64,000 nt of DNA from an uncultured Phycisphaerales bacterium. Its GTDB lineage: Bacteria; Planctomycetota; Phycisphaerae; Tepidisphaerales; Tepidisphaeraceae. Below are positions 48,545 to 56,973 of this stretch, piece after piece. The translations under genes were made by a program, and so were the position numbers. Positions within the stretch are counted from its first letter, which is position 1. Every line of letters starts with the position of its first letter. Under the pieces are notes generated by a model, which was not told the origin of the DNA, did no database searches, and saw nothing but the letters and a program-made list of their open reading frames with translations. The stretch spans positions 324,809 through 388,808 of the forward strand of contig CAWIJX010000006.1 in the NCBI GenBank assembly GCA_963836515.1, in the 5' to 3' direction.

Positions 48545-49900
48545 ATGCACGACAACATGTCTTCGCCGAAACCGTCGCCATTGCGCCGGCCGGCGGAGCC
48601 AGGACCGTTCGATCCGGTCATCTGGCGACAGGTTCTTCAGGCCGTTCGCAATCAGCATCCGGGCATTCATCGCAAATGGTTCGATGAGATGACGCCGCGC
48701 CAGCTCACCAACGGCGTCATCCAGGTGAACGTCGCCACCGTTGCCCAGCTCGACTTCTGCCAGACGCAGTGCCAGCAGATCTTCACGGCCGCCGCCCAGA
48801 TGATCACGGGGCGGCTGGTCATGGTCAGTTTCCATTGCGATAACCTTCCCGCAAGCGGCGTGTTCAATGATGGCGACGTGCCTCTGAAGCTCAACCCCGA
48901 TTACGTCTTCGAGAACTTCGTCACCGGCCCGTGCAACCGCCTGCCCCATGCGGCGTGCGTTGCCATCTCGGACAATCCCGGCCAGGCCTACAACCCGCTG
49001 TTCATCCACGGCGGCGTCGGCCTGGGCAAGACGCATCTCCTTCAGGCGGTATGCCAGCAGGTCCTCGCAAAGCGAGCCGATTCGCGCATCCTCTACCTCT
49101 CCTGCGACAGCTTCATCAATCAGTTCATCAACGCCGTCGAAGCCGGCGAGATGAACCAGTTCCGCCATCGCTATCGTCACGTGGACATGCTCGTTATTGA
49201 CGACATCCACTTTCTCGCCGGCCGGGACCGCACCCAGGAAGAGTTCTTCCACACGTTCAACACGCTGTATCAGAACCACAAGCAGATTATCCTGTCGGCC
49301 GACTCGCCCCCCAGCGAAATCCCCGAGCTTGAGGAGCGGCTGGTCAGCCGCTTCAAGTGGGGCCTGGTGGCGCGCATCGACAAGCCCTGCTATGAGACGC
49401 GCCTGGCCATCCTTCAAAAGAAGGCGCACATCCGATCCTTCGAGCTGCCCGACGAGGTGCTCTGTTACATCGCCCAGCGCATCGAGAGCAATACCCGTGA
49501 GCTCGAAGGCGCCATCACCAAGCTCCAGGGCATGGCGATGCTGCAGGCCGGCCGCGTCGATATGGAGCTGGCCAAGGCCGCCCTGGGCGACACGGCCACC
49601 CCGGAGCAGAAGCGCATCACGATCCAGCAGATCCTGGACGTTGTCACCAAGTATTACAACGTCAAGCCCTCCGACCTGCAGAGCAAGAAGCGCCACAAGA
49701 GCATCGCATTTCCGCGACAGGTCTGCATGTTCCTCGCCCGCCGCCACACGCGCTACTCGCTGGAGGAGACCGGCGGCTATTTCGGCGGCCGCGACCACAC
49801 CACGGTCATGCACGCCGTCAAGACAATTCAGGCCGCCATGCAAGAGGAATCGAGCGTCGCCGAGCAGATCAACCATCTTGAAGCCGAGCTGACCGCGTAG
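48545..49900 (+). CDS. dnaA: chromosomal replication initiator protein DnaA
   Basis: Walker A 'GGVGLGKTHLLQA', 'LLVIDDIHFLAGRDRTQEEFFHTFN', and a C-terminal DNA-binding domain 'RHTRYSLEETGGYFGGRDHTTVMHA'. Confidence 0.9.
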   Translation: MHDNMSSPKPSPLRRPAEPGPFDPVIWRQVLQAVRNQHPGIHRKWFDEMTPRQLTNGVIQVNVATVAQLDFCQTQCQQIFTAAAQMITGRLVMVSFHCDNLPASGVFNDGDVPLKLNPDYVFENFVTGPCNRLPHAACVAISDNPGQAYNPLFIHGGVGLGKTHLLQAVCQQVLAKRADSRILYLSCDSFINQFINAVEAGEMNQFRHRYRHVDMLVIDDIHFLAGRDRTQEEFFHTFNTLYQNHKQIILSADSPPSEIPELEERLVSRFKWGLVARIDKPCYETRLAILQKKAHIRSFELPDEVLCYIAQRIESNTRELEGAITKLQGMAMLQAGRVDMELAKAALGDTATPEQKRITIQQILDVVTKYYNVKPSDLQSKKRHKSIAFPRQVCMFLARRHTRYSLEETGGYFGGRDHTTVMHAVKTIQAAMQEESSVAEQINHLEAELTA

Positions 49901-50054: not shown

Positions 50055-50381
50055 ATGGCCAGCGCCAACGTCAGAGAGTTCACCGACCAGACCTTCGAGA
50101 CCGAAGTTCTCAAGTCCACGCAGCCCGTGCTCGTCGATTTCTGGGCCGAGTGGTGCGGGCCCTGCCGGATGCTGGCGCCCACCATCGAGAAGCTGGCCAA
50201 CGACTACAACGGCAAGGTGAAGGTCGGCAAGGTCGATACCGACGCCAACCGCGACACCGCCCTCAAATACGGTATTAGCGCGATCCCAACAGTGATCCTC
50301 TTTAAGGGCGGGCAGGTTGCCCAGAAGTTCGTCGGGCTGCGCTCCGAGAAGGACTTCCGCGAGGCGCTCGACGCGGTGTGA
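50055..50381 (+). CDS. trxA: thioredoxin
   Basis: 'DFWAEWCGPCRMLAP', 108 aa. Confidence 0.9.
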   Translation: MASANVREFTDQTFETEVLKSTQPVLVDFWAEWCGPCRMLAPTIEKLANDYNGKVKVGKVDTDANRDTALKYGISAIPTVILFKGGQVAQKFVGLRSEKDFREALDAV

Positions 50382-51947: not shown

Positions 51948-53372
51948 CTACTGGATCGCGTGAGACTTGGAGGCGGCTATCTCCAGGAACCGCCGCCTGT
52001 AGCCTTTCTTGAATAGCTCGCACGTGATCGGATCCTTGGCCATCGGGCTACCAGTCTCGGTCAGCGCCAGAGCCCGGCAGCCCATGCCGCACTCGCCGAA
52101 GAAACCGCACGCGGCGCATTCCGGGTTATGGGCGAGCACTTCCTTCTTCTTTCGGTCCACGAGCCGGCGAAACACGGATCGCTTCCACACCTTCGACAGC
52201 TCGCTGCGCAGCAGATTCGGCATCCGGGCCTGCAACGGGGTGTCCACATATCTGGGGCAGCGAATCAACGTTCCATCGGGCAGCACATGCGCCTTCTCGC
52301 GGCAGGCGGCACAGTCGTACTCATCCGGTTGATGGCCCCTGAGCCTGGGCTGCTCCCCCGGCCGAGCCCCATGAAAAAAGCCGCCGAGCACGATGGCGAA
52401 GGGTGATCCATCCCTGACCCAGCGCTCGGCCAGCGGGGCCAGGGCCCTTGCCTGCTCGTCCAGCGTCGCCGCGATGGTGGTCCCCCGCCAGTTGCCATTG
52501 GCATGGGGCGCCTCCAATCGCCATGTCTCAATGTCCAGCGTCTTCATCAGCTCGTAGGTCTCCGCCAGGCAGCCAAGGTTGAGCTTGCACAGAGAGGTGG
52601 CAACCGTCACCGAAAGGCCGGCGGCACGTACCCGCCGAATGGCGTCGATCGCGCCTCGTTCGGCCCCCTTCATCCCTCGCATCGCATCGTGCGCACCCAT
52701 CCCGTCGAAGCTGATCTGGAAATCCGGCCGGAAGCCCAGGCCCTTGATGGACCGCAAATGGCGGTCGGTGATCAGCAGGCCGTTGGATAGAATGCAGCGG
52801 AGGTGGATCTTCTGCTCGGCCATTCGACCGATGATGTCCAGCAGGTCGCGCCTGGCGAACGGCTCGCCGCCGGTGAGCAGAATATCGATCACGTTCGCCC
52901 GCTTGAACTGGTCGAGCAGCGCGAGCATCGCGGTCAAGGGCAGCTCGCCGTATCTGCCGCCGGGCGACTCCATGAAGCAATGCCGGCATTGCAGGTTGCA
53001 GCGGCCGGTCACGGCCCAGAGAATTTCGGCAACCCGCGGGTTCGGCGCTTGGCGATATCGCTGCCACGGCTCAATGGATGTTCGCCGTGGGCACCTCTCC
53101 GCGATGCCGTGCGCCAGCAGCCAATCGAGCATGCCATGGTGCTCGGGGAGAAAGGCCAGCGAGTCGAAGTCAGTCCGGCCGTCGCAGGACTCGGCCACGT
53201 AGAACCCCGTCGGTTTCAGCTCGTGCTGCTCTCCGGTCCGCCAGTTGACCAGCGCCCGCGGAATGTCACTCCAACCGCGGAGCAACCAGTCCGGCTTGAG
53301 TCTGGCGTACCGCCCCGACATCGCGCCGCGGTTCGTCTTGGGAGGTTGGTGTGCACGCATGATCGCGATCAC
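51948..53372 (-). CDS. radical SAM/SPASM-domain peptide maturase with N-terminal RRE-like domain (paralog 1, intact)
   Basis: 'WAVTGRCNLQCRHCFME' CxxxCxxC; 'LLTGGEPFARRD'; SPASM Cys clusters 'CAACREKAHVLPDGTLIRCPRY' and 'NPECAACGFFGECGMGCRALAL'. 474 aa. Confidence 0.85.
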   Translation of the reverse strand: MIAIMRAHQPPKTNRGAMSGRYARLKPDWLLRGWSDIPRALVNWRTGEQHELKPTGFYVAESCDGRTDFDSLAFLPEHHGMLDWLLAHGIAERCPRRTSIEPWQRYRQAPNPRVAEILWAVTGRCNLQCRHCFMESPGGRYGELPLTAMLALLDQFKRANVIDILLTGGEPFARRDLLDIIGRMAEQKIHLRCILSNGLLITDRHLRSIKGLGFRPDFQISFDGMGAHDAMRGMKGAERGAIDAIRRVRAAGLSVTVATSLCKLNLGCLAETYELMKTLDIETWRLEAPHANGNWRGTTIAATLDEQARALAPLAERWVRDGSPFAIVLGGFFHGARPGEQPRLRGHQPDEYDCAACREKAHVLPDGTLIRCPRYVDTPLQARMPNLLRSELSKVWKRSVFRRLVDRKKKEVLAHNPECAACGFFGECGMGCRALALTETGSPMAKDPITCELFKKGYRRRFLEIAASKSHAIQ

Positions 53373-53376
53373 AACG

Positions 53377-54846
53377 CTACAGGGCCGACGCTGCTATCTC
53401 CTGGAACCGTTTCTTGTAGCCCTTCTTGAGTAGCTCACAAATCATCGGCTCCCTGGCCAGCAGATCTCCGGTCTCGGTCAGCGCGGTGGCCCGGCACCCG
53501 CCTGCGCATTCCTTAAAGAGCAGTTCGCACGATGCGCACTCCGGGTTCCGGGCCAGCACGTCCTTCTTCCGAATATCCGCGATCTCGCGCAGGAACGAGC
53601 GTCTCCAGACCTTCGACAAATCCTCACGCAAGAGATTCGGCATGCGATCCTGGAAGATACTGTCCACGTAGCCGGGGCAGGGAACGAGAGTGCCGTCCGG
53701 AAGCAGGCAGGGCTGCTCCCGGCAACTACCGCAGTCGTAGCTGTCCGGCGTCAGCGTTTCGCGCTGCGGCATGTCCGCTGCTGCCTTTGAGTCCGCGATG
53801 CCGCGACGGGCCCGCCGCCGATTGGCGCCGTTGCCCGAGCCCTGCCCGACGGGCATCTCGGGTGATGGCATCCGAAGCATTTGCGGATCGAAGTGGCAGT
53901 AGAAGCCACCGAGCCTGATCATGAACGGCCGGCCGTCTTTGACCCAGGCTTCCAGCAGCGGCGCGAAGGCTTGCGCCTGCATTTCCAGGGATGCGGCCGT
54001 TTTGGCATGCCGCCAGTTCCCGGTCGCCTGCGGCGGCGAGATATTCCAGGCCTGGATGTCCAGCGTCTTCAGCAAACGGTACGTCTCGGCCAGGGCGCCG
54101 ATATTCAGACTGTCGATCAATGTGGCGACAGCCAGCGGGAAACCGGCGCGCGCACCCGGCGAATGGCGTCGATGGCCTTGGGTTCCGTGCCCTCGACCCC
54201 GCGCATCTGGTCGTGGGCGCCGACGCCGTCGAAACTGATCTGGAACACCGGCACGACACCAAGCTGCCGTATCGCTTCGAGATGGCGGTCGGTGATCAGC
54301 AGGCCATTGGAGAAGATCCGGTTGACATAGATCCTCTTGGCCACAAGCAGGGCCACGATCTCCAGAATGTCTTTCCTCAGGAAAGGCTCTCCGCCTGTCA
54401 GGGAAACCTGCACCACGTTGGCCCGCTCGAACTGCCCGACCAGGCCCGCCATCGCGGTGAAGGGAAGCTCGCCGTATCGACCCGATGGCGCCTCCATGTG
54501 GCAGTGCCGGCAGTTCAGGTTGCACCGCCCCGTCACGCACCAGTGAATCCCGATCACGCGCCCGTTCGGGCGCTTTGCGGTAGCGCTGGCACGGCTCGAT
54601 GCGCTCGCCCTTCCGGCATTGCTCGACAAGACCCTCGGCGATGAGCAGGTCAAGCATGGCGCGGTGCCCGGGCAGGAAGCAAAGCGAATCGAAGTCGGTC
54701 TGCCCATCACATGCCTCGGCCACGTAGAAGCCCATCTCATTGAGCGAGCGCTGCCGGCCACTCACCCAGTTGACGGCCATCCGAGGCAGATCGTCCCAGC
54801 CGCGAAGCAGCCAGTCCTTTCCCAGTCTCGCGTATCGTCCGCGCAT
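53377..54846 (-). CDS. radical SAM/SPASM-domain peptide maturase (paralog 2), at least two apparent frameshifts
   Basis: N-terminal and C-terminal SPASM parts in ORF 53377..54846 ('CGSCREQPCLLPDGTLVPCPGY', 'NPECASCELLFKECAGGCRATAL'). rSAM core 'IHWCVTGRCNLNCRHCHMEAP...SLTGGEPFLRKD' in ORF 54117..54761. Confidence 0.75.
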   Translation of the reverse strand: MRGRYARLGKDWLLRGWDDLPRMAVNWVSGRQRSLNEMGFYVAEACDGQTDFDSLCFLPGHRAMLDLLIAEGLVEQCRKGERIEPCQRYRKAPERARDRDSLVRDGAVQPELPALPHGGAIGSIRRASLHRDGGPGRAVRAGQRGAGFPDRRRAFPEERHSGDRGPACGQEDLCQPDLLQWPADHRPPSRSDTAAWCRAGVPDQFRRRRRPRPDARGRGHGTQGHRRHSPGARAGFPLAVATLIDSLNIGALAETYRLLKTLDIQAWNISPPQATGNWRHAKTAASLEMQAQAFAPLLEAWVKDGRPFMIRLGGFYCHFDPQMLRMPSPEMPVGQGSGNGANRRRARRGIADSKAAADMPQRETLTPDSYDCGSCREQPCLLPDGTLVPCPGYVDSIFQDRMPNLLREDLSKVWRRSFLREIADIRKKDVLARNPECASCELLFKECAGGCRATALTETGDLLAREPMICELLKKGYKKRFQEIAASAL

Positions 54847-54986
54847 GACATCCTCATTTCATGTTCCATGCGGGAAAAGCAGCTCCCGCGAGGCGATCAT
54901 TCCGCGCAGAACAGAAACAGGGCGTGCGGGGCGAGCCCCGCACGCCCCTGAACTGTCACGTATGCACATGGCCTCGCGGCCAGGAT

Positions 54987-55272
54987 CAATAGTAGCAGCC
55001 GGTGTAGGTGTCGAAGCCGTAGGGGCAATAGGACTGGCCGGCCACCTCGGGCACTTCGGCCGCGCTGCGTTTGGGGGCTTTGGCCTTGCGCCCTTGAGGA
55101 ATTCCTGCGCGGTGAACTTATAGCCCGCGGCGGAGGCGATCTTCGCCACGCCCGCCGCCGATTTTGCCTGGTTCTCCTTCGCCAGGCTTGCCTGCAGGGC
55201 TTTCATCTTCGCCTGCAGCGACTTGGTTGTCCCGACTTTCTCAAAGAAACCTTCTACGTCCTTCGCTGACAT
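54987..55272 (-). CDS. Nif11-type leader RiPP precursor peptide; the core is readable only after a 1-nt correction in a C5 run (plus G5 at 55073-55077)
   Basis: ATG 55272 with AAGGAGA RBS. Leader 'MSAKDVEGFFEKVGTTKSLQAKMKALQASLAKENQAKSAAGVAKIASAAGYKFTAQEFLKG' fits the Nif11 leader consensus (MS.E.L.AF..KV..D.SLQ.KL..IA..AGF..T..EL). A +1 shift after 'ARPKPP' gives 'KRSAAEVPEVAGQSYCPYGFDTYTGCYY' and stop TGA at 54989-54987. The uncorrected track ORF runs to 54859 as low-complexity sequence. Confidence 0.55.
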
Positions 55273-55546
55273 GTTTTTCTCCTTGACCCGTCAGGGTCTA
55301 TCAGAATGCTGCACAAAGATCGTCGCTGGACCGCCACGCGGGAGGGCCACGGGCCGCACACCAGCGCGGGTCCGACACATCGGCAATCCCCGAGGCGAAG
55401 GGCCTCTTGTCGAGTTGCTGCCCGAACTGTGCTGGCAGTGACATGGTCATTTTCGCGGGCTGGAACTGAATCCGCGAGTTCGCATGCTCAGTCAAAGTAC
55501 CCAGACGCTTGGCCACATGCAAACGTTACATTCGATTGCAGTCAAC

Positions 55547-56313
55547 TCATCGGCTGGCGCTCTCGGCGTATTGGTCGGCGAAGTGTTTCAGGAGCGTCTT
55601 CAGTTCGAACGTCCGCAGTCGCGGAAAGGCGCCCAGCAGCAGGGCGCACAGCCCCGTCACCGTTGGAGTGGCGAAGCTGGTGCCGGTCATCTCGCAATAG
55701 CCACCGCCGCGGGCCGGCGTCACCACGCGGGTGCCACGGGCCACGAACTCGATGGGCGGCCTGTGATATTTCAGCAGGTACGGCGAGGCGAAGTCGGCGC
55801 GGTCCACGTTGATGCAGGTCGAGATCTCGGCCGGCCAGCCGTTGTCCTCCAGCGGCATGTTCCGTTTGGCCGCGACGATCACGATGTTCCGCCGGCAGGC
55901 CCGGTCGCACAACTGGCGCAGCTCCGCCGCGAACTTCGCGTGACAGGCCAGGCTGAGGTTGATCAGGCGCATGCCCCGGTCGATGGCCATGCGCACTCCC
56001 GCCAGCAAGGCGGCGCCGGAGCCGGCGCAACGGGCATCCAGCATGCGAATATCGAAGATACGGGCATTGGGGGCGATGCCGGCGATGATCCCGGCGACGC
56101 CGGTGCCATGCCCGAAGACATCATTGTTCCGGCCGGGGCGGCATTGAGCCGGCTCGGCGGGCGGCTCGATCTTCCACGCCTCGGCCACTCGCTTACGAAG
56201 ATCGGGGTGCCGGGAATCGACTCCGGTATCCACCACCGCCACGTCGATCGGCGCCAGCCGCGCGCGGCGAGGGATTGCAGCGAGACGCCAAGGGCTTTGT
56301 CGAATGCGTTCAT
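55547..56313 (-). CDS. subtilisin-like S8 serine peptidase (cytoplasmic; candidate leader peptidase), apparent frameshift near 56250
   Basis: Catalytic triad contexts 'VAVVDTGVDSRHPDL', 'HGTGVAGIIAG', 'GTSFATPTVTGLCALLL' (ORF 55547..56518). N-terminus 'MNAFDKALGVSLQSLAAR' in ORF 55963..56313. Confidence 0.7.
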
Positions 56314-56973
56314 GCCGTCGCCCCATCGCAGAGGGCGCCCACCGCCCCAAGCACCGAGCGAATCTCGCGCAGGCGGTTCGGATGCCTGCGGATAAGGTCG
56401 GCCACGCCCTCGACGATCCCGGCGCGGAGCCGATCCGCCGGCCGGCCGAGGCGCCCCGACCGCCGCAGTTGATCGACCTCCTGGAGCCGCCGCTGCTGGT
56501 CAACCACGACGGCCGCAACGGTCGCGATCTTCGCCTGCAACTCCGCGTCGTGGGCGGTGAATCGCTTCTCCGCCGCGAAACTGACGGCGGTGATCACGCC
56601 GCACACTTCGTCGCGGATCAACATCGGGGCGGCGATGACCGCCGTCGGCTGGTTGCGCTGGCCGGCCTTGCGCAGCGCGCTGGCGGATGTCCTTGAAAGT
56701 CGGCGCGCCAATCTGCACCTCGCGCGTGGCCACCGCCAGGCCGGTCAGGCCCTGGCCCAGGGGAACCCGCTGGCCCATCAGCGTCTTCTCCGACCCTCCG
56801 GTCGTCATGGCGAAGACGAGATGACGCTTGGCGCGATCGAGGACCAGCAGCAACCCCTCCTCCGCGCCCACGCATTGGACGCCCAATTCGACCAGCAGCC
56901 GCAGGACCGCCCCTTCGGGTGTTCGAGGCATGATCCCCAGAAACGCCGACAGGATGCGGTCGGATGACGGCAT
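56310..56973 (-). CDS. GAF-domain protein, apparent frameshift near 56700
   Basis: 'ILSAFLGIMPRTPEGAVLRLLVELGVQCVGAEEGLLLVLDRAKRHLVFAMTTGGS' (ORF 56500.. frame) then 'QPTAVIAAPMLIRDEVCGVITAVSFAAEKRFTAHDAEL' (ORF 56310..56711). Confidence 0.6.

Follow-up and report, generated by a model that had tools for sequence, protein, structure and literature searches.

The stretch of DNA analyzed here, referred to as the window, comprises 64 kb of contig CAWIJX010000006.1 from an uncultured Phycisphaerales bacterium. At positions 51948-56973 of the window, five co-directional genes on the minus strand encode a GAF-domain protein, a small subtilisin-like S8 peptidase, a precursor peptide with a Nif11-type leader, and two radical S-adenosylmethionine (SAM)/SPASM enzymes, designated rSAM-A and rSAM-B (Table 1). 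An earlier reading of the same letters by a model (the sequence-only reading) had placed the five genes at these coordinates and had interpreted them as a cluster for a ribosomally synthesized and posttranslationally modified peptide (RiPP). Our results support that interpretation, and none of the three tests proposed for refuting it went against it: the gene cluster is genuine and specifies a small, enzymatically modified ribosomal peptide of a widespread uncharacterized family. The domain assignments were upheld by Pfam and NCBIfam once the reading frames had been repaired. As given, the genes are less readable than had been assumed, with rSAM-B being the only intact open reading frame (ORF); the other four genes are interrupted by a total of five single-base breaks, which the sequence-only reading had passed over. 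The stop codon of the GAF gene and the start codon of the S8 gene overlap as ATGA, and the GC content of the cluster (0.61 to 0.71) is similar to that of its flanks.

Table 1. Features of the cluster, with positions in the 64-kb window
Feature	Position	Strand	Description
GAF gene	56310..56973	minus	~221 aa, stand-alone; Pfam GAF_2 on repaired protein
S8 gene	55547..56313	minus	small subtilisin-like peptidase, ~257 aa; Peptidase_S8
Shine-Dalgarno AAGGAG	55279..55284	minus	6 nt before precursor ATG 55272; read directly
Nif11-leader precursor gene	54986..55272	minus	95 aa if intact; PF07862, TIGR03798
Core peptide SYCPYGFDTYTGCYY	54989..55033	minus	15 aa
GC-rich 13-bp hairpin	54919..54948	minus	spacer between precursor stop and rSAM-A; structure scan
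rSAM-A gene	53377..54846	minus	489 aa after repair; Radical_SAM + SPASM
rSAM-B gene	51948..53321	minus	457 aa, intact; Radical_SAM + SPASM

The precursor gene is preceded by the strong ribosome-binding site that had been pointed out earlier (Table 1). The peptide itself proved to be longer than proposed: in place of a 60-residue leader with a 16-aa core, the repaired frame encodes an 80-aa leader followed by a 15-aa core. When the repaired precursor was used as a protein query, an intact 95-aa product (P0121) was retrieved. The expectation that hidden Markov models (HMMs) would recognize a Nif11-type leader was borne out clearly by PF07862 (39.6 bits; cutoff, 23.8) and barely by TIGR03798, for which the repaired precursor and P0121 gave borderline scores of 32.6 and 33.0 bits (cutoff, 32.3), while the closest relatives (P0124 and the second precursor of locus L125, the closest relative for which DNA is available) scored 28 to 30, below the cutoff. 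The leader terminates in PEVAGQ and not in a double-glycine GG/GA motif; within the maturase family as a whole, leaders end in either GG or xVxGQ. The core, SYCPYGFDTYTGCYY, contains two Cys and five Tyr residues. Its nearest counterparts are YYCPYGLGTGPGNYW and YYCPYGIGTDYGCYW, both from L125, and YYCPYGLGTGWGNYW, and PYG is kept in all four of these closest cores. The closest subfamily also keeps a C-terminal aromatic pair, [WY][YW], together with aromatic residues one to three positions before each Cys. Across the maturase family, Cys is the only near-universal core residue; aromatics are not universal, and cores such as KKNTECMAVSLL and IPLISGKCSPIGINS contain Cys and no aromatic residue.

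Both maturases possess the CxxxCxxC motif and the C-terminal SPASM cysteines that had been ascribed to them. The SAM-cluster motif reads CNLQCRHC in frame in rSAM-B and CNLNCRHC in rSAM-A, where it is found only in a shifted frame in the window. The SPASM model PF13186 scored 23.2 and 24.7 in the two proteins (cutoff, 21.5), and rSAM-B has an 8-Cys SPASM region whose cysteines (C337, C340, C355, C402, C405, C411, C415, and C434) are invariant among 27 homologs. The two genes are indeed paralogs, their products being ~60% identical. A database protein (P0001) is 100% identical to rSAM-B, which most likely starts at ATG 53321 and not, as had been suggested, at GTG 53372.

We compared both maturases with NCBIfam on the basis of the best 25 matches listed per protein, the 25th of which scored ~50 bits. 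The sequence-only reading had raised the possibility of a well-characterized non-RiPP family; among these matches, no curated family model attains its cutoff with either radical-SAM protein. The highest-scoring equivalogs (AhbD, NirJ, TIGR04053, GeoRSP, and ScmE) gave ~110 bits against cutoffs of 395 to 515, with scores of 112/500 for AhbD and 109/515 for NirJ (score/cutoff), followed by MftC at 93/265. The PqqE model scored 91 and 70 against a cutoff of 381, and SkfB scored 48-57/300. Models for anaerobic sulfatase maturases, for SCIFF, RumMC, and QhpD, and for the nif11-like peptide maturase TIGR04064 (cutoff, 518.7) lie outside the best 25 of either protein. Cognate genes of the non-RiPP SPASM pathways are likewise missing nearby, the neighbors being precursor, protease, and polyamine genes. 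The solved structures nearest by sequence (SkfB, PqqE, and SuiB) are all remote. We found no curated NCBIfam model and no solved structure that represents the maturase family. In line with the earlier statement that no described family could be matched, a search of the open-access literature found no paper on the family, although a description elsewhere is possible.

An AlphaFold2 model of rSAM-B (predicted local distance difference test [pLDDT], 78; predicted template modeling [TM] score, 0.82) comprises an N-terminal strand-helix domain, a radical-SAM barrel, and a SPASM domain. Residues 1 to 76 form four short strands followed by two helices, modeled at high pLDDT. Foldseek returned SuiB, which bears a RiPP recognition element (RRE), as the best full-length match (TM score, 0.62 over ~470 columns), followed by SkfB and PqqE. 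On the basis of this predicted fold, the N-terminal domain of the maturases is predicted to be RRE-like. SuiB/StrB, the Lys-Trp crosslinker of streptide, shares the same three-domain layout; however, sequence identity is only 16%, and the core in the window is without a Lys-Trp motif. Streptide precursors are short and not of the Nif11 type.

The family to which these enzymes belong is widely distributed. At least 238 homologs of rSAM-B were found at an E value of ≤1e-10, and the 120 listed are 48 to 64% identical to it. They come from Planctomycetota, Opitutia, Desulfotomaculum-type Firmicutes, Sporomusa, Sulfurovum, gut Clostridia, Synergistaceae, Victivallaceae, and others. When the N-terminal 94 aa were searched against 1.84 billion cluster representatives (50% identity), 69 matches were obtained, nearly all of them proteins of 440 to 500 aa, indicating that this domain marks a discrete, moderately sized maturase family. 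In a neighbor-joining tree, rSAM-A groups with P0060, an intact 489-aa homolog, inside a clade of enzymes from single-maturase loci, whereas rSAM-B joins P0002 on a separate long branch. This grouping implies that the duplication is old and predates these two organisms and that rSAM-B is the divergent copy.

Synteny in relatives, which had been proposed as a check on the RiPP interpretation, was found: a Nif11-type precursor gene lies beside the maturase gene in nearly all of ~120 fetched loci from many phyla. Tandem maturase paralogs, two to four in number, recur in loci of Limiplasma and other Clostridia, and one JGI contig matches the layout of the window, with a 95-aa Nif11 precursor followed by radical-SAM proteins of 489 aa (P0060) and 469 aa. 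Clusters with several paralogous maturases are not without precedent, thuricin CD being an example (PMC12093266). In L125, genes for a GAF protein (223 aa) and an S8 peptidase (263 aa) are divergent from a precursor-precursor-maturase array.

Some members of the family sit in more elaborate loci. In a metagenome-assembled genome of the Deferribacterales (L047, 3297-13889), ~18 Nif11-type ORFs surround one family maturase; most have near-identical leaders ending in GG and highly diverse Cys-containing cores, and ABC (ATP-binding cassette) exporter genes are present. The locus is an array of diversified precursors that recalls the prochlorosin-type clusters. Eight loci from Limiplasma and related gut Clostridia (L043, L044, L048, L050, L052, L058, L060, and L061) encode one precursor with four or five Cys residues, for example, GGCYHGDPNCTSVCGSCCGEFLGTYIGKQ. 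There, three tandem maturases follow the precursor and a fourth family member lies elsewhere in the locus, an arrangement much more elaborate than the two-enzyme layout of the window. In a Verrucomicrobiae locus (L001/L007, 2444-4117), a 557-aa secreted ankyrin-repeat protein is encoded between the Nif11 precursor and the maturase, with patatin, nSTAND, TIR/SIR2, and cyclic nucleotide monophosphate (cNMP)-ABC genes downstream. In the isolate draft genome of Desulforamulus aquiferis Bs105 (L036, 7069-11266), three tandem maturase paralogs appear to be broken into several ORF fragments, reflecting either decay or sequencing errors.

The unusual point of the cluster is that a GAF-S8 pair stands in place of the canonical C39 exporter. 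The repaired GAF protein matched GAF_2 (E = 2e-9), and the repaired S8 protein matched Peptidase_S8 (E = 4e-27); its D/H/S triad can be read in the motifs VVDTG, GHGTG, and GTSFA. The peptidase has no signal peptide or pro-domain and is 66% identical to the S8 protein of L125. Its best NCBIfam matches, both below cutoff, are mycosin and then QhpE (NF049966; 89.9 against 165). QhpE and QhpD, which act in the maturation of quinohemoprotein amine dehydrogenase, likewise unite a radical-SAM/SPASM enzyme that crosslinks peptides and a small subtilisin-type protease of the cell interior; in contrast, the cluster in the window contains no qhp genes, and a free Nif11 precursor takes the place of an enzyme subunit as its substrate. 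The quinohemoprotein amine dehydrogenase system is not known to have a GAF partner. The GAF family itself comprises more than 312 homologs of ~220 aa, and a small S8 gene follows in all five of the neighborhoods inspected.

The distribution of the pair follows the type of leader. A small S8 gene, mostly adjoining a GAF gene, was found in 7 of 15 loci with GQ-ending leaders and in 0 of 35 with GG-ending leaders (Fisher P = 6e-5), and the count among loci with at least 5 kb of flank is 4 of 7 versus 0 of 13 (P = 0.007); because the loci are phylogenetically non-independent, these P values overstate the evidence. The GG-type loci checked (L056 and L037) encode a canonical C39-ABC exporter (TIGR03796; 940 and 1,080 bits against a cutoff of 853), and L056 also has TIGR03797. 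The ABC exporters checked in GQ-type loci are without a C39 domain. The type found in L005 has a fused C-terminal cNMP-binding domain, and in L002 the genes for GAF and S8 are accompanied by one for a shorter ABC exporter and by another, separate from it, for a cNMP-binding protein. Several GQ-type loci, mostly from Opitutia and peat-metagenome contigs, combine GAF, S8, an RyR/TPR-S cyclase-like protein, and a cNMP-binding ABC exporter. Maturases of this family that are more distant from those of the window occur with the canonical Nif11/nitrile hydratase leader peptide (NHLP) cassette (TIGR03798 with TIGR03796/TIGR03797). With that cassette the window shares the Nif11-type leader and the precursor adjoining the maturase, and it differs in its EVAGQ leader end and in having a cytoplasmic S8 peptidase with a GAF protein instead of a C39 peptidase-exporter.

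GAF followed by S8 was also found in three further contexts. In two of these, the small ORFs nearby show no Nif11 likeness, and the accompanying radical-SAM proteins belong to other families, one being CcpM-like (296 against 500) and the other matching DynA best and weakly (112 against 450). The leaders nevertheless end in KADVEGQ, followed by SASCYSSC..., and in KAEVQGQ, followed by DWFACQ.... The occurrence of GAF-S8 beside EVxGQ-type leaders of different RiPP families is the strongest comparative evidence that S8 acts as the leader peptidase, which would cut at or next to xVxGQ. The neighboring cyclases and cNMP-binding exporters suggest that the GAF protein may be a cyclic-nucleotide-responsive gate. 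No paper on a GAF-S8 leader peptidase was found in the open-access literature, and PADLOC yielded no defense-system model for GAF, S8, and radical-SAM proteins, with generic subtilase and viperin-core similarity only and no match for GAF.

Collectively, the cluster resembles in its working the known RiPP pathways that combine a Nif11 leader with radical-SAM/SPASM enzymes, and it lies outside any curated maturase family that could be tested. Its gene content, domain architecture, and conserved synteny are established; the chemistry of the crosslinks, the division of labor between rSAM-A and rSAM-B, the site at which S8 cuts, and the function of the GAF protein are inferred as follows. The 95-aa precursor would be translated from its strong ribosome-binding site, and its Nif11-type leader would dock on the family-specific RRE-like N-terminal domain of both maturases. 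These enzymes would then cross-link the core by 5'-deoxyadenosyl radical chemistry with the help of two auxiliary Fe-S clusters. The most likely products are Cys S-to-C thioethers such as those of sacti- or ranthipeptides; thioether formation is a guess, and the best one available given the near-universal core Cys and the full SPASM Cys set. rSAM-A may be the ancestral enzyme, acting on the conserved Cys of YCPYG, with the divergent rSAM-B adding a second modification. The cytoplasmic S8 peptidase, translationally coupled to GAF, would cut the leader at or next to xVxGQ and so substitute for the C39 peptidase-exporter of the GG-type relatives, while the probable function of the GAF protein is to gate or target this protease, with a cyclic nucleotide as a possible signal. 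As a whole, this pathway, in which a thioether-type macrocyclic 15-mer is formed and then released by S8, has in our estimation a probability of about 0.7.

Several observations count against this pathway, the first of which concern its chemistry. Pfam sees no PqqD-like domain in the maturases and nothing in the first 93 aa, and the sacti- and ranthipeptide maturase models score far below their cutoffs, with PapB at 53/340 (a match listed for rSAM-B only) and StsB at 72-73/625. The likeness to the synthases of this type (CteB, PapB, StsB, and AlbA) lies in the predicted RRE-like N-terminal domain, the CxxxCxxC motif, the full SPASM Cys set, and the Cys residues of the cores; the N-terminal domain in the window is family specific. 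A rule of one maturase per cysteine was considered and rejected, as L124 encodes a two-Cys core with one maturase and the three-Cys cores of Opitutia loci also occur with one. The PYG motif and the C-terminal aromatic pair of the closest cores also fit other chemistries. In one alternative, the same RiPP cluster would install C-C or C-O crosslinks on Tyr or Trp (cyclophane/triceptide-like or PqqE/StrB-like) or Cys-to-aromatic bonds, with the Cys residues serving as disulfides or cluster ligands. That 5 of the 15 core residues are Tyr, that aromatic residues precede each Cys in the closest subfamily, that the nearest solved full-length fold is the C-C crosslinker SuiB, and that the thioether-maturase HMMs all stay below their cutoffs point in this direction. 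However, several family cores have Cys without aromatics, Cys alone being near-universal, and the cyclophane models XyeB, FxsB, GrrM, and YhhB are absent from the best 25 matches of either maturase. We consider a different chemistry in the same cluster to be unlikely.

The assignment of the GAF-S8 pair to the pathway is weakened by the fact that about half of the GQ-type loci have no S8 gene in the available DNA. In addition, a pair in Syntrophus (L129) occurs without any radical-SAM gene, beside genes for a CHASE2 cyclase and a caspase-like peptidase. GAF and S8 could accordingly be a neighboring regulatory or proteostasis pair, with leader removal left to an unlinked protease. Set against this are the strict association of GQ leaders with S8 and of GG leaders with C39-ABC, the EVxGQ leader ends on unrelated precursors beside GAF-S8, and the fact that the pair directly adjoins the precursor here and in L125, L002, and L127. 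An independent GAF-S8 pair appears improbable.

The export step is also missing from the locus. As the sequence-only reading had noted for C39, no ABC or C39 exporter homolog was found by homology anywhere in the 64-kb window, and the cluster is thus not demonstrably self-contained. The earlier view of a self-contained module holds in part: L125 likewise has no exporter beside its GAF-S8 pair, but many of the close relatives with a GAF-S8 pair have further genes, for a cNMP-binding ABC exporter and a cyclase-like protein, neither of which is present in the window.

The remaining points against the pathway concern the broken reading frames, which were located by three-frame translation, tblastn with intact homologs, and inspection of the junctions. 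The GAF gene contains one single-base break at ~56677-56651, and the intact L125 GAF protein aligns to it by tblastn in two frames, at 65% and 59% identity. The S8 gene has one break at ~56269-56260, such that the catalytic domain does not share the frame of the first 18 codons (counted from ATG 56313); with the L125 S8 protein as the tblastn query, its N-terminus MNAFDKALGVSLQSLAAR aligns with INRIEEALGVPLEALRTR in a different frame. In the precursor gene, one T is absent between 55092 and 55091, which places the Nif11 leader and the core (GQSYCPYGFDTYTGCYY, followed by the stop codon) in different frames and turns the literal ORF into a 137-aa read-through. rSAM-A carries two compensating breaks, at ~54569 and ~54147, which put the third of the protein containing the CxxxCxxC motif and SAM-binding region off-frame; its 489-aa ORF stays open merely by chance in GC-rich DNA, and tblastn with rSAM-B returned three segments in two frames.

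The origin of these breaks could be addressed with L082, the contig encoding P0121 (a Logan assembly of run ERR10755942). It is identical to window positions 54663-56259 at 1,595 of 1,599 positions and by this sequence match is an independent contig from the same organism. The differences are three single-base indels and one adjacent mismatch. L082 has the T that the window lacks in the precursor gene, restoring the intact 95-aa frame, whereas it has an extra T within the S8 gene and a one-base deletion with the adjacent mismatch within rSAM-A, at both of which the window agrees with homologs. Each contig therefore carries its own indels, and the two are best understood as noisy assemblies of one organism with separate consensus errors. 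The precursor frameshift is an assembly artifact. Across the window, frame tracking with a seven-state Viterbi frame model and stop-to-stop translation reading revealed ~14 to 17 further frame switches in ordinary genes, or ~1 break per 4 kb, as expected of an indel-rich, probably long-read, assembly. Mid-gene frame changes without a stop occur, for example, at ~2120, 7006, 25638, 38507, 38769, 39976, 42344, and 51396, and the genes affected include signal-peptidase-like, CarboxypepD_reg-repeat, TPR, O-antigen-ligase-like, WecA/MraY-like, and MttB-like genes, as well as the ornithine-decarboxylase-like gene that flanks the cluster.

Since L082 restores the precursor and frame breaks are common in ordinary genes, the other four breaks in the cluster are most likely consensus errors as well, rather than signs of gene decay. 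A decaying remnant, in which the GAF, S8, and rSAM-A breaks are real and the system is nonfunctional in this organism, would fit the five breaks in 5.1 kb, when ~1 per 4 kb is seen elsewhere in the window, and the lack of the exporter and cyclase genes of many relatives; it would also accommodate the fact that the artifact is directly demonstrated for the precursor frameshift only. The cluster was, though, screened harder for breaks, with homologs, than the rest of the window. Furthermore, the sole checkable break is absent from L082, which has different indels, housekeeping-type genes over the window are broken too, neither the coding signal from GC content at third codon positions nor the amino acid conservation is lost on either side of any break, and repaired rSAM-A aligns with P0060 without gaps at 66% identity. 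We regard decay as very unlikely. As seen here with the artifactual 137-aa ORF, noisy long-read assemblies may hide or fake small precursor genes.

Finally, excision of X-Tyr-Gly (here PYG) as tyramine to leave an alpha-keto-beta-amino acid, as by PlpX on Nif11/NHLP precursors, would suit the PYG in all four closest cores, the Nif11-type leader, and the activity of known spliceases at XYG sites of Nif11-type precursors (PMC11002830), yet it is highly improbable because enzymes 60 to 68% identical to rSAM-A sit with YG-free cores, YG is missing from most cores of the family, the PlpX model TIGR04103 (nif11-class maturase 3) gave only 75.6 bits for rSAM-A and 67.6 for rSAM-B against 725, no separate PlpY-like partner gene is present, and the maturases have their own N-terminal domain.

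Uncharacterized radical-SAM RiPP clusters are common, and the radical-SAM/SPASM RiPPs have proved fruitful for finding new peptide chemistry and macrocyclic scaffolds. What the present work adds is a discrete maturase family, occurring in many phyla and covered by no curated model, that can be delimited by an N-terminal domain peculiar to it and by Nif11 leaders joined to cores with Cys, and a testable system in which a compact 15-mer substrate meets two old paralogous enzymes. If the link between GAF-S8 and EVxGQ is true, it would provide a sequence-specific soluble leader protease, leader removal being a bottleneck in heterologous RiPP work, and would tie peptide maturation to cyclic-nucleotide signaling. 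A bolder and rather doubtful extension is that GAF-S8 is a portable, undescribed leader-peptidase module that recognizes (E/D)-V-x-G-Q ends on unrelated precursors and replaces C39, with GAF providing cyclic-nucleotide gating in concert with cNMP-binding exporters and cyclases. On this extension the peptides would be regulated signals, not plain bacteriocins, and rSAM-A and rSAM-B would install two distinct crosslinks.

GAF-S8 loci repeatedly adjoin genes for very large signaling proteins, among them guanylate-cyclase/Ser-Thr-kinase/TPR or WD40 fusions (L125, 191-4096; L127, 13970-14678; L131, 11702-14663; L129, 1038-4625 and 11494-13659). Such neighbors hint that GAF-S8 is part of a wider cyclic-nucleotide signaling or conflict context. 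The run that yielded L082 also contains a second, unrelated family member on a deltaproteobacterial-type contig (L003), with genes for a precursor, a radical-SAM enzyme, GAF, S8, and a truncated further protein; on L002, a longer ENA/NCBI contig with the same maturase, an ABC exporter occupies the last position. Such clusters are thus carried by at least two organisms of the sample.

The hairpin in the spacer between the precursor stop and rSAM-A is followed by a T-rich tail, GTTTCTGTTC, and is terminator- or attenuator-like, the spacer folding with a z score of -3.9. In bacteriocin operons, the spacer between the precursor and enzyme genes is the usual site of an attenuator that sets stoichiometry, and the hairpin here probably sets the precursor-to-enzyme ratio. 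Four relatives were checked: a 12-bp GC hairpin is present in the same spacer of L124, to which the L125 spacer is identical, while hairpins in L004, L002, and L012 were unconvincing, with poor spacer alignment. An Rfam scan of 51-58 kb gave no match, and no sigma-70-like promoter was found by a scan that may not suit this phylum.

The cluster is flanked, as had been described, by polyamine-type genes, namely, an ornithine/arginine-decarboxylase-type gene on the plus strand and a homospermidine-synthase-like gene of the saccharopine-dehydrogenase family. Cumulative GC skew drops steadily over 46-62 kb with no turning point, so that no origin signal is visible there. An intact dnaA gene (48545-49900, plus strand, 451 aa) lies ~2 kb from the cluster and is followed by a thioredoxin gene (50055-50381).

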